Shown in pieces: positions 7,846 to 41,301 of a stretch of 42,242 nucleotides of DNA. A program made the position numbers and the translations under genes. Origin of the DNA: a phage; the sequence record PX871047.1. One strand, written 5' to 3'. Position 1 is the stretch's first letter. Each line of letters begins with the position of its first letter. The notes beneath the pieces are model-generated. The model saw only the letters and a program-made list of their open reading frames with translations. It was not told the DNA's origin and searched no databases.

Positions 7846-7870
7846 ACACCCTCCTGTTTAAGTTAACTGA

Positions 7871-7899
7871 ATAGTACCCTATTATATTGGTGTCTGCAA
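7871..7899 (-). promoter_or_regulatory. promoter with embedded AATAG-N4-CTATT dyad (type A)
   Basis: Minus strand reads TTGCAG - 17 nt - TACTAT; dyad at 7870-7883. Confidence 0.55.
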
Positions 7900-7943: not shown

Positions 7944-8987
7944 ATGAGCTTACTTACATCCCTAATTAGCCACCAGATATGGCTACAACGCACCGCATCC
8001 GGCGAGGTGAAAGACCTTGCGCCGTTCATTCAGGAAATGCGGGACGAAATCAAACGGCAGGTGTTGCTGTTCGGCGACGACGGTCGCAGCACCGCGCGAC
8101 TGAATAAACTGTTACGTGACCTCGAAGAAGCACTGACCGGGCTTACAGGCGACTGGCAAACGAAGCTGACAGAAGACCTAAAGGAACTGGCGGCGTATGA
8201 GGCCGAGTGGAACGTGAAGACACTGACGACTAACGTTAACGCGGAATTTGTTACGCCTACCGCCGAACAGGTGTGGGCCGCTGCCGAGTTTCAGCCCTTA
8301 TCATTAAGTGACAAGCCCGTTGATTTCGCCAAGCTGATGGATGGCTGGGGTGAAACAGAAGTATCGCGACTGGTAACTGGTGTTAAGATGGGTTTCGTTC
8401 AAGGCCAAACCACACGGCAGATTGTTAAAAATGTCGTTGGCGCTGGCGGACTGGCGGACATCTCTGAGCGCAACGCAGCTACGGTAACCCGCACCGCGCT
8501 GTCGCACATATCCAACGAAGCACGCAACGAGACGTACCGTCAGAACGACGACATCATCGAGAAATATGAATGGGTATCGACGCTTGACAGCCGTACCAGT
8601 ACGATTTGCAGAGCCAGGGACGGAATGACGTGGGAAATCGGTAAGGGGCCGATGCCCCCCGCCCATTTTGGCTGCCGAAGCACCACAGCACCTGTAATCA
8701 GTTCAGAATTCGACTTCCTCGATAAAGACGCAAAACGTGCAGCTAAGGGTGCGGACGGCGGAACTCAGGTAAGCGTGGACACCTCTTACTACGAGTTCCT
8801 AAAACAACAACCGGCATGGTTTCAGGATGAAGCACTCGGTCCTGTTCGCGGTAAGATTTTCCGCAACAGCGGTATATCGCCGGAAGAGTTTCGCGTAATA
8901 TCTGTAGATGGTTTCGGGAATCCGCTTACGCTTAAGCAGATGGCGGAACTCGATAAACGTGTTGCTGATTATCTGAAAGGGGAATAA
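7944..8987 (+). CDS. head morphogenesis protein (putative)
   Basis: Position after portal; ATG 7944 after AGGAGG (track ORF begins 7887 inside the promoter motif). Confidence 0.5.
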   Translation: MSLLTSLISHQIWLQRTASGEVKDLAPFIQEMRDEIKRQVLLFGDDGRSTARLNKLLRDLEEALTGLTGDWQTKLTEDLKELAAYEAEWNVKTLTTNVNAEFVTPTAEQVWAAAEFQPLSLSDKPVDFAKLMDGWGETEVSRLVTGVKMGFVQGQTTRQIVKNVVGAGGLADISERNAATVTRTALSHISNEARNETYRQNDDIIEKYEWVSTLDSRTSTICRARDGMTWEIGKGPMPPAHFGCRSTTAPVISSEFDFLDKDAKRAAKGADGGTQVSVDTSYYEFLKQQPAWFQDEALGPVRGKIFRNSGISPEEFRVISVDGFGNPLTLKQMAELDKRVADYLKGE

Positions 8988-9448
8988 TGATGGGCTTTTT
9001 CAAAGTAACTGACGTACCTTCGCGTCGCGTTGTCCAGTTTGCTCGCGTGTCTGGCTCCGGTGAGAACGTGGTGTCTATTGGGGACGAAAGTGTACTAGGT
9101 ACGCCAGTAGATGATATGCCGTTTGCAGATAAGACCGGTATTGCGCTACCCGCCGCGGGGATGCTTTACGAGATTCCGTATCTGGCTGACGCCGGCGACG
9201 TGTATTTCTCTGTGCAACCGCAGGACACGGAACTGGCAGACGGCAGCGCAACTATCACTGTCGAAGTTAAGGCGGGCAAAGCACCGTATGCGCTGACCTG
9301 GTACAAAGACGGGAAGGAAGTGGTAAATGCCCCTGAAGAGGCCTTGTCTCTGACAGTTAATGCGGTCGGCGAATACTTCGTTAAAGTTACTGATGCCGAT
9401 GGTGTGGAGGCTGTTAGTAAAGCGGCGAAGGTCATTAAGCCAGAATAA
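8987..9448 (+). CDS. Ig-like domain virion protein
   Basis: C-terminal APYALTWYKDGKEV...GEYFVKVTD, Ig-like pattern shared with the 12660 protein. Confidence 0.45.
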   Translation: MMGFFKVTDVPSRRVVQFARVSGSGENVVSIGDESVLGTPVDDMPFADKTGIALPAAGMLYEIPYLADAGDVYFSVQPQDTELADGSATITVEVKAGKAPYALTWYKDGKEVVNAPEEALSLTVNAVGEYFVKVTDADGVEAVSKAAKVIKPE

Positions 9449-9452
9449 ACTG

Positions 9453-9477
9453 AAGCCCCGTTAAGGGGCTTTATTTC
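9453..9477. terminator. bidirectional intrinsic terminator
   Basis: AAGCCCC / GGGGCTT stem followed by TATTTCC. Confidence 0.6.
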
Positions 9478-9486
9478 CATCAGAGT

Positions 9487-9582
9487 TCACCATTCCCCTC
9501 TATCTGCATCCTCAACCCCGCTAATAGCCCACACAAACAATCCTAAATTAACCAGTAACACAAATGAAATTGCTATCATCAT
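9487..9582 (-). CDS. small hydrophobic peptide (31 aa)
   Basis: GGAGGT before ATG; MMIAISFVLLVNLGLFVWAISG; own promoter 9609-9637. Confidence 0.4.
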   Translation of the reverse strand: MMIAISFVLLVNLGLFVWAISGVEDADRGEW

Positions 9583-9608
9583 AACCACCTCCACTAGGCA
9601 TTTACTGA

Positions 9609-9637
9609 ATAGTACGCTATTATGTTGGGGTGTGCAA
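9609..9637 (-). promoter_or_regulatory. promoter with embedded AATAG-N4-CTATT dyad (type A)
   Basis: Minus strand reads TTGCAC - 17 nt - TACTAT; dyad 9608-9621. Confidence 0.55.
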
Positions 9638-9689
9638 ACTATTTGTTTACGTATTCCAGTTATTCCGCTCAATTGTAAATGTTGGAATA

Positions 9690-9705
9690 AACTATTCGAA
9701 TAGTT
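9690..9705. repeat. perfect 16-bp palindrome AACTATTCGAATAGTT
   Basis: Self-complementary; same half-site (GAATAGT) as the promoter dyads but in inverted arrangement; abuts -35 of promoter 9704-9732. Confidence 0.6.
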
Positions 9706-9732
9706 GACTTTTCACTAAAAATATGATAAGCT
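9704..9732 (+). promoter_or_regulatory. promoter of ORF-less element, copy 1
   Basis: TTGACT - 17 nt - TAAGCT with TGn extended -10; same arrangement at 40955-40983. Confidence 0.45.
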
Positions 9733-9738
9733 CCACCT

Positions 9739-9940
9739 GAGCTTGTGAAGTATGAACAAGCGACCGCGGCGCGGGCAGGTAACGGAGCGGGACGTAAGTC
9801 CTGAGTGTAGTTACGCTGACGCGTTCGGAAGGGCCGTACCCTATTGCTTGTGTAAAAAGTAACTGGTTTACTGAGATTACGCCGTTTCTATGTTTAAATG
9901 ATAAGGACTAGCGCCCCGCTTTATGGCGGGGCTTTACTTA
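9739..9940 (+). ncRNA. candidate ORF-less structured transcript (putative sRNA or leader), copy 1
   Basis: No conserved ORF; 5' hairpin GCTTGT/ACAAGC (9741-9761); conserved block 9802-9835; terminal hairpin GCCCCGC/GCGGGGC (9913-9932) followed by TTTACTT; paralog at 40990-41234. Confidence 0.35.
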
Positions 9941-9956
9941 TCGAGAAAGGAGAAAC

Positions 9957-10343
9957 ATGAATCTTAAAGCAACTGTCGTAGCGGGGGCATGTTTCATCAT
10001 CCTGGCTTACGCACACGGCATCTACCAGTACCGCAGCGGCTGGAACGAAGGCCGGGCTAATCTAGCTTCACAGCAACAGCGGAAAGCACAGACCGAGTTA
10101 GCGAAGAAAACACAACGGCAGCAGCAGGACGAATCGAAGGCCGCGGCCGCTGACAACGAAGGCAAGACGAAATCAGAGGTAATTACCCGTGAAGTCGTTA
10201 AGTACATTAAAACGCCTGGCCGCAGCGTGTGCACTTTCGACGATGCTCGCGTCCTGCTCAAGTCCCGCGCCGTCACCAACGCCAATTCCATCCCCGGATA
10301 CGACAATGATGCAGCCGCCGTGCAAGCTGGCACCGCCAAGTAG
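9957..10343 (+). CDS. i-spanin (Rz-like)
   Basis: N-terminal TM segment then Gln/Lys/Glu-rich region; contains out-of-frame lipoprotein ORF. Confidence 0.6.
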   Translation: MNLKATVVAGACFIILAYAHGIYQYRSGWNEGRANLASQQQRKAQTELAKKTQRQQQDESKAAAADNEGKTKSEVITREVVKYIKTPGRSVCTFDDARVLLKSRAVTNANSIPGYDNDAAAVQAGTAK

Positions 10344-10452
10344 CGACGCGGACGAGGATTTGGCTATCGACGTTCAGAACGCCGAATGCGTACGGCAACT
10401 GAGACTGAAAGTGTTCATGTTGCAGGATTACGTGAGGAATATTCTGGAATAG
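10189..10452 (+). CDS. o-spanin (Rz1-like lipoprotein), overlapped architecture
   Basis: GTG start; signal peptide with lipobox LAS-C; Pro-rich mature part; starts inside Rz-like ORF in another frame and extends past its stop. Confidence 0.55.
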   Translation: MKSLSTLKRLAAACALSTMLASCSSPAPSPTPIPSPDTTMMQPPCKLAPPSSDADEDLAIDVQNAECVRQLRLKVFMLQDYVRNILE

Positions 10453-10534
10453 TTGCCTTGCATGTTGGAATAATTTATTCTTGACATGTAAATCCGGGTG
10501 GCCCGGGTTCCAACGTCCAGGGGACATACTGACT

Positions 10535-11236
10535 ATGAATCGTTTTTTACGTTATCCGTTCCAGGAAGAAGCTGGGGCAGAAGATAAAGCCGGTGGCGGT
10601 GGCGCACCGAAAATGTTCACCGCTGAAGAAGTTCAGGCGCTGATTGAGAAAGAAGTCGCCGGGCTTAAGGCTAATCAGGAAGCGTTGCTGGCGGAGAAGA
10701 AAGAAGCCGCTCGCAAAGCAAAAGAGGCCGAAGAAGAACGGCAGCGCGCACACCAGGAGGCGTTAAAAGCCGCTGGTAAGATGGACGAGTTCGAAAAAAC
10801 GATTCGTAGCCAGTATGACCCGGTGTTAGCCGAGAAAGATGGTCGCATCTCCAGAATGGCAGAGCGCATCCTCGGCAGCGAACGTAAAGCGGTGTTAGGC
10901 TCTTTCGCGGGTGACTTTATCACCCCGGAAGCAGTGGACATCCTGGCTCCGTTCGTTAAGACTGAGTTTGAAGGCGATGACGTGGTTACTAAGTTTGTCG
11001 GCGCAGACGGCAACGTAATCACGACTGACCCGGAACAGTTCCGCAAATACCTGCGTGAACACAAAGCGTTTTCGCATTTGATTAAAGCAAATGCAGCTTC
11101 CGGCGGCGGGGCTTCCGGTAGCAAAGGCGGCGGGGCCGCACCAGCGTTTAAAGACATGAGCGAAGCGGAGCGTTTAGCTCTGTATAAATCGAACCCTGCC
11201 GAATTTGAACGGCAACTTAAAGCCCTGAGGAAATAA
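10535..11236 (+). CDS. scaffolding protein (putative)
   Basis: Ala/Glu/Lys-rich coiled-coil-like sequence immediately upstream of major capsid gene; ATG 10535 (track ORF begins 10481). Confidence 0.55.
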   Translation: MNRFLRYPFQEEAGAEDKAGGGGAPKMFTAEEVQALIEKEVAGLKANQEALLAEKKEAARKAKEAEEERQRAHQEALKAAGKMDEFEKTIRSQYDPVLAEKDGRISRMAERILGSERKAVLGSFAGDFITPEAVDILAPFVKTEFEGDDVVTKFVGADGNVITTDPEQFRKYLREHKAFSHLIKANAASGGGASGSKGGGAAPAFKDMSEAERLALYKSNPAEFERQLKALRK

Positions 11237-19304: not shown

Positions 19305-19345
19305 GGTGTAGCTCCTGTTTGAGTTAACATTGTTGGTGTAAGTGA

Positions 19346-19374
19346 ATAGTATCCTATTATGTTGGGGTGTGCAA
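19346..19374 (-). promoter_or_regulatory. promoter with embedded AATAG-N4-CTATT dyad (type A)
   Basis: Minus strand TTGCAC - 17 nt - TACTAT; 33-bp block 19342-19374 identical to reverse complement of 41273-41305. Confidence 0.6.
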
Positions 19375-37708: not shown

Positions 37709-37739
37709 TATTTATTCTCCTCTCGTTTGGTATGTGCCA

Positions 37740-37768
37740 ACTATAATAGCGAACTATTCACTTGTCAA
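37740..37768 (-). promoter_or_regulatory. promoter with embedded AATAG-N4-CTATT dyad (type B)
   Basis: Minus strand TTGACA - 17 nt - TATAGT; dyad 37745-37758. Confidence 0.65.
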
Positions 37769-40954: not shown

Positions 40955-40983
40955 TTGACTTTTACTTAAAAATGTGCTAAGCT
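40955..40983 (+). promoter_or_regulatory. promoter of ORF-less element, copy 2
   Basis: TTGACT - 17 nt - TAAGCT with TGn; paralog of 9704-9732. Confidence 0.45.
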
Positions 40984-40989
40984 TCACTG

Positions 40990-41234
40990 AGCTTGTGAGA
41001 TATCGCAAGCGACCGCGGAGCGGCAGGGAACGCAACGCGTGCCATTAGGCACTTGAGTGTAGTTCCGCTGGCGCTTTCGGAAGGGCCAAAGTCTATTGTT
41101 AATCCCGCCTAAATACCCAAGTCACTGATAATTAAAGTTTCTATAGTTGCCGTAAGCGAGGTAGAGAGTACTTCACTCCGCTGTGGTGGGCTAACGCCCA
41201 CCCACTGCGTTGCGTACTCTTTTAAGAAACGAAA
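40990..41234 (+). ncRNA. candidate ORF-less structured transcript (putative sRNA), copy 2
   Basis: No ATG-initiated ORF; 5' hairpin GCTTGT/GCAAGC (40991-41010); conserved block 41064-41097; nested terminal hairpins AGAGTAC...GGTGGGC/GCCCACC...GTACTCT then TTT. Confidence 0.35.
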
Positions 41235-41272
41235 GAATCACAACGGCAACGTAACTATTCTCTTGCACACCC

Positions 41273-41301
41273 CAACATAATAGGATACTATTCACTTATC
41301 G
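41273..41301 (+). promoter_or_regulatory. early promoter with embedded AATAG-N4-CTATT dyad (type A)
   Basis: TTGCAC - 17 nt - TACTAT; dyad 41289-41302. Confidence 0.6.

Follow-up and report, generated by a model that had tools for sequence, protein, structure and literature searches.

Sequence record PX871047.1 was analyzed as a single window of 42,242 nucleotides, that is, the whole stretch of DNA to which all positions below refer. At 42.2 kb, the window corresponds to nearly the whole genome of a Kagunavirus (Guernseyvirinae). Within its head module, two overlapping genes on the plus strand are predicted to encode an Rz-like inner membrane spanin (i-spanin; positions 9957 to 10343) and an Rz1-like outer membrane lipoprotein (o-spanin; positions 10189 to 10452). 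A total of 334 phage records, most of them from siphophages of E. coli and Salmonella, matched the 1.5 kb surrounding this pair, with identities of up to 98%, and the relatives are classified in the Guernseyvirinae (Kagunavirus, Jerseyvirus, and Cornellvirus).

The genes ahead of the pair encode terminase, portal, head-morphogenesis, and decoration functions. Its immediate upstream neighbor is a Hoc-like decoration gene (8987 to 9448; phrog_3945, E = 9e-85), at the end of which a terminator scan placed a bidirectional terminator (9441 to 9474), and its downstream neighbor is the head scaffold gene (10535 to 11236; phrog_206, E = 3e-55). The spanin locus adjoins a variable insertion site (9475 to 9700) whose content differs among relatives. 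In the window, a 61-amino-acid (aa) open reading frame (ORF) is found on the minus strand between the bidirectional terminator and a 22-nucleotide (nt) motif at 9607. This motif, which contains a palindrome, is present in five copies in the window, at the starts of operons, with zero copies expected by chance. ARAGORN detected no tRNA or tmRNA in the window, and the tRNA-Ser annotated near the equivalent position in phage templet has no counterpart there.

The predicted spanin gene pair

The i-spanin gene starts with ATG behind a Shine-Dalgarno sequence, AAGGAG, at 9947 to 9952 (AAGGAG or AAGGGG in relatives) and encodes 128 aa. Among the PHROG profiles, its product matches phrog_2536, "Rz-like spanin," over its full length (E = 3.4e-54) and shows remote similarity to other Rz-like PHROGs (E = 1e-5 to 3e-3); Pfam searches with both spanins gave no significant match, the best being DUF2514 (E = 0.054), and it was the PHROG matches that settled the assignment. 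A single hydrophobic stretch follows the N-terminal MNLK at residues ~5 to 23 (nt 9969 to 10025; Kyte-Doolittle maximum of 1.72 for the averaging interval that starts at residue 5). The predicted topology is type II, with one N-terminal transmembrane (TM) segment and the bulk of the protein in the periplasm, and the Snoke homologue is annotated as "N-in, C-out" by TMHMM. The periplasmic domain is rich in Gln, Ala, and Lys, is predicted to be helical, and carries Cys92. A single-sequence AF2 model showed a continuous helix over residues 3 to 84, as expected of a helical stalk, with a pLDDT of 72 to 85 for residues 1 to 60 and low confidence beyond residue ~85 (the C-terminal 40 residues). Identity of the i-spanin is 63% to Jersey gp09, 88% to the Snoke i-spanin, and ~90 to 94% to the K1ind2 and K1ind3 proteins (tblastn for Jersey, K1ind2, and K1ind3).

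The o-spanin gene lies in the +1 frame relative to the i-spanin gene. It begins with GTG inside the latter, overlaps it by 155 nt, and runs 109 nt beyond its stop codon. A Shine-Dalgarno sequence, AGAGG, is present at 10175 to 10179 (spacing, 9 nt), and the ribosome binding site (RBS) annotated in Snoke is at the equivalent place. The 87-aa precursor matches two spanin families, phrog_5672 (E = 4.5e-30) and phrog_1267 (E = 1.4e-18). By a rule-based call, the signal peptide is MKSLSTLKRLAAACALSTMLAS and is followed by Cys; cleavage at this point would release a mature protein of 65 aa that starts with CSS and whose N-terminal sequence is CSSPAPSPTPIPSP. The precursor thereby combines a basic N terminus, a hydrophobic core, a lipobox (L20-A21-S22-C23, encoded by nt 10246 to 10257), and a Pro-rich mature start, with 10 Pro among the first 30 mature residues. 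Position +2 is occupied by Ser, not by Asp, as in lipoproteins sorted to the outer membrane, and both Cys45 and Cys67 are present. In a genome-wide screen with a loose hydrophobicity cutoff, the o-spanin was the sole credible lipoprotein ORF of the window.

A lipobox ORF in the +1 frame was retained in every one of 60 related loci, 13 of them GenBank records and the other 47 IMG/VR contigs, although the signal peptide sequence diverges. The lipobox reads LASC, LSAC, LSGC, LNGC, ITGC, or LTGC among these loci, and CSC and SAC are found in two outgroups. The C-terminal half of the o-spanin is strongly conserved (…MQPPCK…DADEDLAIDVQNAEC.RQLRLKVF…). Together, the profile matches and the retention of the lipobox ORF across 60 of 60 loci indicate that the predicted pair is not a product of chance. 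A preliminary description of this DNA had proposed an Rz-like i-spanin with an N-terminal TM segment and a coiled-coil-like periplasmic region, overlapped by a Pro-rich Rz1-like lipoprotein with the lipobox LAS-C that starts with GTG inside the Rz frame and extends past it. Its coordinates for the pair (9957 to 10452) agree to the base with the ORF list, each of these features is borne out by the profile, helix, lipobox, and overlap data above, and the spanin interpretation as such agrees with published family definitions and with the curated annotations of relatives.

Family membership and position apart from the lysis cassette

The Jersey family of overlapped two-component spanins was defined by Kongari et al. 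(2018, BMC Bioinformatics 19:326; PMC6139136) and includes Jersey, the SETP phages, the Kagunavirus phages K1G, K1H, and K1ind1-3, and HK578, JL1, and SO-1. According to the same study (PMC6139136), the two genes overlap by 155 bp in Jersey versus 8 bp in the FSL_SP-031 type, Cys45 and Cys67 of the o-spanin are constant, LNGC is among the lipobox variants, and the i-spanin of the Jersey subfamily is predicted to form two helices with a beta-containing linker between them. The window pair shares with this family the 155-bp overlap, the o-spanin cysteines of the lipobox and of positions 45 and 67, the shortness of the i-spanin and its TM domain at the N terminus, and the conserved C-terminal half of the o-spanin. 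Nothing of substance differs: the window lipobox is LASC, most Jerseyvirus members have LNGC, the "separated" FSL_SP-031/Shemara type has ITGC, and in the relative Shemara the spanin genes overlap by 8 nt. At the level of individual genomes, the pair is equivalent to Jersey gp09 and gp10, with the same start geometry, and to the i-spanin and the 87-aa (264-nt) o-spanin of Snoke (CPT_Snoke_009, "Contains Lipobox motif"), with which it shares the RBSs, the gene geometry, and the slot before the scaffold gene. Homology of both proteins, the 155-bp overlap, and the presence of Cys45 and Cys67 place the predicted pair in the Jersey family. Because of the PHROG matches, the TM segment, the lipobox, Ser at +2, the Pro-rich start, Cys45/Cys67, and the 155-nt overlap, we consider it very probable that the window encodes a canonical overlapped two-component spanin of this family, which would act by the mechanism of lambda Rz/Rz1 and be transcribed by read-through.

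The holin and endolysin genes are located near the start of the window, where a holin (874 to 1182; phrog_2359), a second holin or antiholin (~1175 to 1447; phrog_2508), and an endolysin whose ORF ends at 1910 (PF00959, Phage_lysozyme; E = 7e-26) are all encoded on the plus strand. From the endolysin stop (1910) to the i-spanin start (9957), the distance is 8,046 nt. These results uphold the placement given in the preliminary description, namely, flanked by head genes and the scaffold gene, about 8 kb from holin-like and lysozyme genes at 874 to 1910. The spanin genes are thus not part of a contiguous lambda-type holin-endolysin-spanin cassette. The region that follows the endolysin gene (1911 to 2257) is noncoding and contains two terminators and a promoter-like site, and no second or unimolecular spanin was found beside the endolysin.

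The spanin slot between the decoration and scaffold genes is common to Kagunavirus, Jerseyvirus, and Cornellvirus, and in Dhillonvirus JLBYU37 a distant spanin homologue (34% identity) is found between the head-morphogenesis and scaffold genes. The constancy of the slot in the Guernseyvirinae, together with the JLBYU37 homologue, therefore indicates that linkage of the spanins to the head module is old and normal for the lineage. A head-module position remote from the other lysis genes is ordinary for the Guernseyvirinae. A classical precedent for such separation is phage T4, whose PseT.3/PseT.2 spanin genes are unlinked to the holin (t) and endolysin (e) genes and are under different transcriptional control. 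The T4 spanins have a "separated" architecture, are not homologous to the window pair, and are not encoded in a head module.

As stated in the preliminary description, the spanin finding matters little beyond being a correct rederivation, from raw sequence, of a pair that is already known: the family is published, the genes are annotated in reference genomes, and their separation from the holin and endolysin is in print. What that description overlooked is that this arrangement is typical of the Guernseyvirinae and already on record. In the Schulenberg genome paper (like that of Snoke, a Center for Phage Technology announcement of a Guernseyvirinae genome), the spanins are reported as separate from the holin and endolysin.

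The window pair resembles lambda Rz/Rz1 in comprising a type II inner membrane protein, helical in its periplasmic part, together with a small outer membrane lipoprotein that is rich in Pro and encoded in the +1 frame, in its periplasmic cysteines, and in its presumed role in the last step of lysis. Sequence similarity between the lambda and window spanins is only remote. Whereas the Rz1 gene of lambda lies entirely inside Rz, the window o-spanin extends 109 nt past the i-spanin stop; and whereas the lambda spanin genes come last in the S-R-Rz/Rz1 cassette of the late transcript, the window pair belongs to the head module, 8 kb from the other lysis genes of the window, and has a promoter/RNA element of its own in front of it. 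By analogy with lambda, the i-spanin would be anchored in the inner membrane by its one N-terminal helix and would reach across the periplasm as a long helical stalk, and the o-spanin would be exported, lipidated at Cys23, and, because residue +2 is Ser, sorted to the outer membrane. Binding between the C-terminal regions of the two proteins would produce a complex that spans the periplasm through the peptidoglycan mesh and is restrained by it. Once the holin (874 to 1447) fires and the endolysin degrades the wall, the freed complexes would collapse and fuse the inner and outer membranes, completing lysis. Coregulation with the holin and endolysin would not be needed, because the spanins would be harmless until the wall is gone. 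The lysis function assigned to Jersey-family spanins is thus a prediction from architecture and from lambda Rz/Rz1.

Two other readings of the gene pair concern what its members encode. Many GenBank records, as well as PHROG 5672, carry a truncated 47-aa o-spanin that lacks a signal peptide; the 144-nt version is annotated in Bas70, SETP13, and templet, and the profile of PHROG 5672 spans 47 residues. If this version were correct, the second gene would consist only of the ORF that starts at ATG 10309 (MMQPPCK...) and would encode neither a signal peptide nor a lipoprotein. That outcome is extremely improbable, given that in all 60 loci this reading frame stays open through the 120 nt upstream of ATG 10309, which encode a basic N terminus, a hydrophobic core, and a lipobox Cys in every lineage despite divergence. 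Moreover, the GTG start has a Shine-Dalgarno site, the phrog_1267 alignment covers o-spanin residues 8 to 86, and the long form is used in the curated annotations of Snoke, Jersey, and Shemara. Recognition of the long GTG-start form as the right o-spanin model has practical value; the truncation is widespread. We regard as very unlikely the second reading, in which the genes would constitute a moron encoding a membrane protein and an outer membrane lipoprotein that act in superinfection exclusion or receptor blocking, in the manner of T5 Llp or phi80 Cor. The location of the pair away from the lysis genes and beside the variable insertion slot (9475 to 9700) would fit such a moron; furthermore, no published genetic test of Jersey-family spanins was found in the literature, and none is known to us. 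However, the pair bears the signature of a spanin: two overlapped genes, conserved Cys residues in the periplasmic parts, an o-spanin rich in Pro, and an i-spanin with a helical stalk. It is also conserved throughout and always in the same place, whereas morons are patchy. The phage also contains no other spanin candidate, although its host is Gram negative.

A putative structured RNA upstream of the spanin genes

A sigma-70-type promoter with an extended -10 element (TTGACT-N14-TGaTAAGCT) is found on the plus strand at 9704 to 9732 and is followed by an ORF-less stretch of ~200 nt that is closed by a hairpin at 9913 to 9932. The stretch contains the core of a putative structured noncoding RNA (9733 to 9857, plus strand), which was searched for with a covariance model (R1). 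In the window, this model matched exactly two places, the second being 40983 to 41109 on the plus strand, and the promoter is present at both copies as well as in relatives. The spanin genes had been described as directly downstream of the first copy of this ORF-less element, and the measured spacing is in agreement: the hairpin ends ~17 nt upstream of the pair.

In each Guernseyvirinae locus searched, model R1 detected a single copy ahead of the spanins, apart from Shemara, whose copy is too divergent for the model; in two outgroups, it detected none. Across the Guernseyvirinae loci with enough upstream sequence, the RNA and the spanins were adjacent in all 55 (54 with the exact core plus the divergent Shemara). 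The core contains an invariant motif, CGGAAGGGCC...TATTG, which in IMG/VR was found only in Guernseyvirinae-like contigs of ~41 to 45 kb. In an alignment fitted to the model, 95.7% of cells in the predicted long arm of the RNA pair, versus 29 to 42% in slid controls, and 8 of its 18 pairs show compensatory changes. An independent MAFFT/RNAalifold run recovered the same arm, also with eight compensatory pairs. Searches against Rfam 15 gave no match at the gathering threshold across the whole window and, in E-value mode on both copies, only chance-level matches (E of at least 0.1). The sequence GCUUGUG is present twice (at 9741 and 9847), and either copy can pair with ACAAGC at 9756 to 9761, which would permit alternative folds. 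A 36-aa ORF at 9752 to 9862, annotated in Bas70 and Snoke, was rejected as a gene: neither copy 2 nor the Jersey-type copies retain it. The structured RNA is not commented upon in either the Snoke or the Schulenberg record, and in the Snoke record this hypothetical ORF lies inside it.

The hairpin downstream of the core was detected by a terminator scan and by folding. It has a GC-rich stem of 8 bp (-17.9 kcal/mol; 9913 to 9932, plus strand) and reaches 9940 with the UUUACUUA tail. Compensatory variants of the stem are found in relatives (GCCCCGC/GCGGGGC, GCCCTGC/GCAGGGC, GCCCGGC/GCCGGGC, and GCCCGAC/GTCGGGC). The stem of the 9913 to 9940 hairpin is thus conserved, whereas the U-tract is not: the tail reads UUUACUUAU in the window and UUAGCGUAU in Jersey-type relatives (a weak U-tract), and there is no U-tract in Cornell-type phages, in which the RNA continues into the spanin RBS. 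The hairpin is consistent with the upstream RNA having a terminator-like 3' end. An identical promoter also stands before copy 2, whose 3' end is a hairpin of -31 kcal/mol with UUUU after it; a same-strand operon comes next. Downstream of the Shemara spanins come a terminator and then a gene on the minus strand, such that the RNA and the spanins form a self-contained module. This covarying, promoter-driven RNA, without an Rfam family, is a more interesting object than the spanin pair itself.

Spanin transcription and possible control by the RNA

Between 9733 and 9957, no sigma-70-like site was found on the plus strand, either by scanning or by reading the sequence, with the scope of the consensus scans being such that they are blind to phage-specific or activator-dependent promoters. 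The sequence TGATAAGGA at ~9898 was considered as an internal promoter and rejected, as the final T of the -10 hexamer is missing and there is no -35 element. Because no promoter is found between the RNA core and the ATG, the spanin mRNA is probably a read-through product from 9704, the closest promoter from which the spanins could be transcribed, or from further upstream and, as judged by consensus scans only, would arise by read-through of the 9913 to 9932 hairpin. Spanin output would then be reduced and tied to transcription of the upstream RNA. The 22-nt motif at 9607 may be a phage-specific or activator-dependent promoter site. A literature search for transcriptome or promoter studies of the Guernseyvirinae yielded nothing relevant.

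Instead of leaking past the hairpin, RNA polymerase could be gated there by the RNA. The upstream RNA would then be a cis-regulatory leader, either a riboswitch or attenuator or a put-like processive antiterminator, that controls passage through 9913 to 9932 and thereby production of the spanins and possibly of scaffold and capsid. The layout of promoter, covarying multihelix domain, hairpin, and RBS plus gene is what such a leader would show, and it is repeated at copy 2 with the identical promoter, the -31 kcal/mol hairpin and UUUU, and the downstream operon. The adjacency of RNA and spanins in 55 of 55 loci (with Shemara as a divergent version), the Cornell-type RNA that runs into the spanin RBS without a U-tract, the terminator-closed RNA-spanin unit of Shemara, and the alternative folds offered by GCUUGUG/ACAAGC pairing also point in this direction. 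However, no ligand and no Rfam relative were found, the matches for an antiterminator pairing against the 9913 to 9932 hairpin are only 4 bp long and unconvincing, and the same anatomy suits a stand-alone small RNA gene whose terminator is leaky. Homologous spanins are also found without the RNA in distant relatives (Dhillonvirus and Klebsiella phage Kp4882-1); the spanins are therefore independent of the RNA in principle. On this evidence, a cis-regulatory leader is possible though unlikely. We consider rather unlikely the fuller proposal that the spanins are the conserved cargo of an undescribed, Guernseyvirinae-specific leader RNA with two paralogous copies per genome, each between a near-consensus extended -10 promoter and a hairpin, and that this RNA gates downstream transcription by riboswitch-like attenuation or by factor-independent antitermination of the put type. 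Control of the spanins by the RNA, which the preliminary description had cautiously suggested, is nonetheless anatomically reasonable and plausible from the predicted layout. If true, it would be the first case of RNA-based control of spanin expression, and if the RNA gates read-through, lysis gene dosage would be linked to an RNA switch.

The genes farther downstream may have a promoter of their own. A promoter-like sequence, TTGCCT-17-TATTCT, is present on the plus strand at 10453 to 10481, directly after the o-spanin stop. It aligns with the 9704 promoter region, of which it is a paralogue, is conserved in the Kagunavirus and Jerseyvirus types, and may be a separate promoter for scaffold and capsid.

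Spanin genes within the head module

The spanin pair of the window (i-spanin, 9957-10343; o-spanin, 10189-10452) has distant homologues in other siphophage genera. Such pairs, with 34-39% identity, were found in the Dhillonvirus JLBYU37 locus (L010, 2977-3418) and the Klebsiella phage Kp4882-1 locus (L009, 2995-3460). Both lie between head-morphogenesis and scaffold genes, and both lack the upstream structured RNA. The location in the head module is therefore older than the Guernseyvirinae. In many GenBank records (Bas70, SETP13, templet, and others), the o-spanin is annotated from an internal ATG, giving a 47-amino-acid version without signal peptide or lipobox (window, 10309-10452; related phage loci L001, 5839-5982; L004, 2202-2345; and L005, 1795-1938). 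The PHROG 5672 profile is also 47 residues long and seems to have been made from these internal-ATG calls. In ABTNLsp11241, the i-spanin and o-spanin labels are interchanged.

A structured RNA in two copies

The structured RNA is present at 9704-9940 (copy 1; covariance model core match, 9733-9857) and 40957-41225 (copy 2; core match, 40983-41109). Each copy is promoter driven and contains no ORF: the promoter (TTGACT-N14-TGnTAAGCT) is followed by hairpins, the core, and a 3′ hairpin. The hairpins covary across Kagunavirus, Jerseyvirus, and Cornellvirus copies, and the core, CGGAAGGGCC...TATTG, is invariant. Rfam holds no family for this RNA, and in IMG/VR the core motif was detected only in Guernseyvirinae-like contigs. 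In copy 1, the segment GCUUGUG occurs twice (9741 and 9847), and ACAAGC at 9756-9761 is a possible alternative pairing partner for either one.

Candidate regulatory sites and a variable slot

Repeated TTATTCC/GGAATA(A) half-sites lie on either side of the RNA promoter's −35 region (9640-9703) and recur around a promoter-like TTGCCT-17-TATTCT directly 3′ of the o-spanin stop codon (10430-10481). Jersey-type phages retain these half-sites, which are a candidate array of phage-regulator binding sites. A 22-nt motif, GAATAGTAYSCTATTATRTTGG, which includes the palindrome AATAG-N4-CTATT and in most cases is followed by GGTGTGCAA, occurs five times in the window versus zero expected by chance (plus strand, 7869-7890, 9607-9628, and 19344-19365; minus strand, 37738-37759 and 41272-41293). 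All five stand at the start of a gene block, and the motif is a candidate promoter or operator of the phage.

Positions 9475-9700, bounded by the terminator of the decoration gene and the promoter of the RNA, form a slot whose content varies between phages and which looks like a moron insertion site. In the window, it carries a minus-strand 61-amino-acid ORF (9487-9672) with a hydrophobic segment and no PHROG match; the equivalent slot holds a sliding-clamp-like gene in Snoke and a 141-amino-acid ORF in SETP13 and is nearly empty in Jersey-type phages.

Other noncoding hairpins

The scaffold 5′ untranslated region contains a conserved hairpin (10491-10509), which reads AUCCGGGugGCCCGGGU in the window versus CACCGGGuggCCCGGUG in Jersey-type phages. 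This hairpin lacks a U-tract and is therefore a possible stability or translational element. The endolysin gene is followed by approximately 350 nt of noncoding DNA (1911-2257), which includes a long hairpin with imperfect pairing (about 1969-2032), a pair of strong terminator-like hairpins (at approximately 2043-2070 and 2146-2175), and a promoter-like TTGACT-17-TATATT (about 2196).
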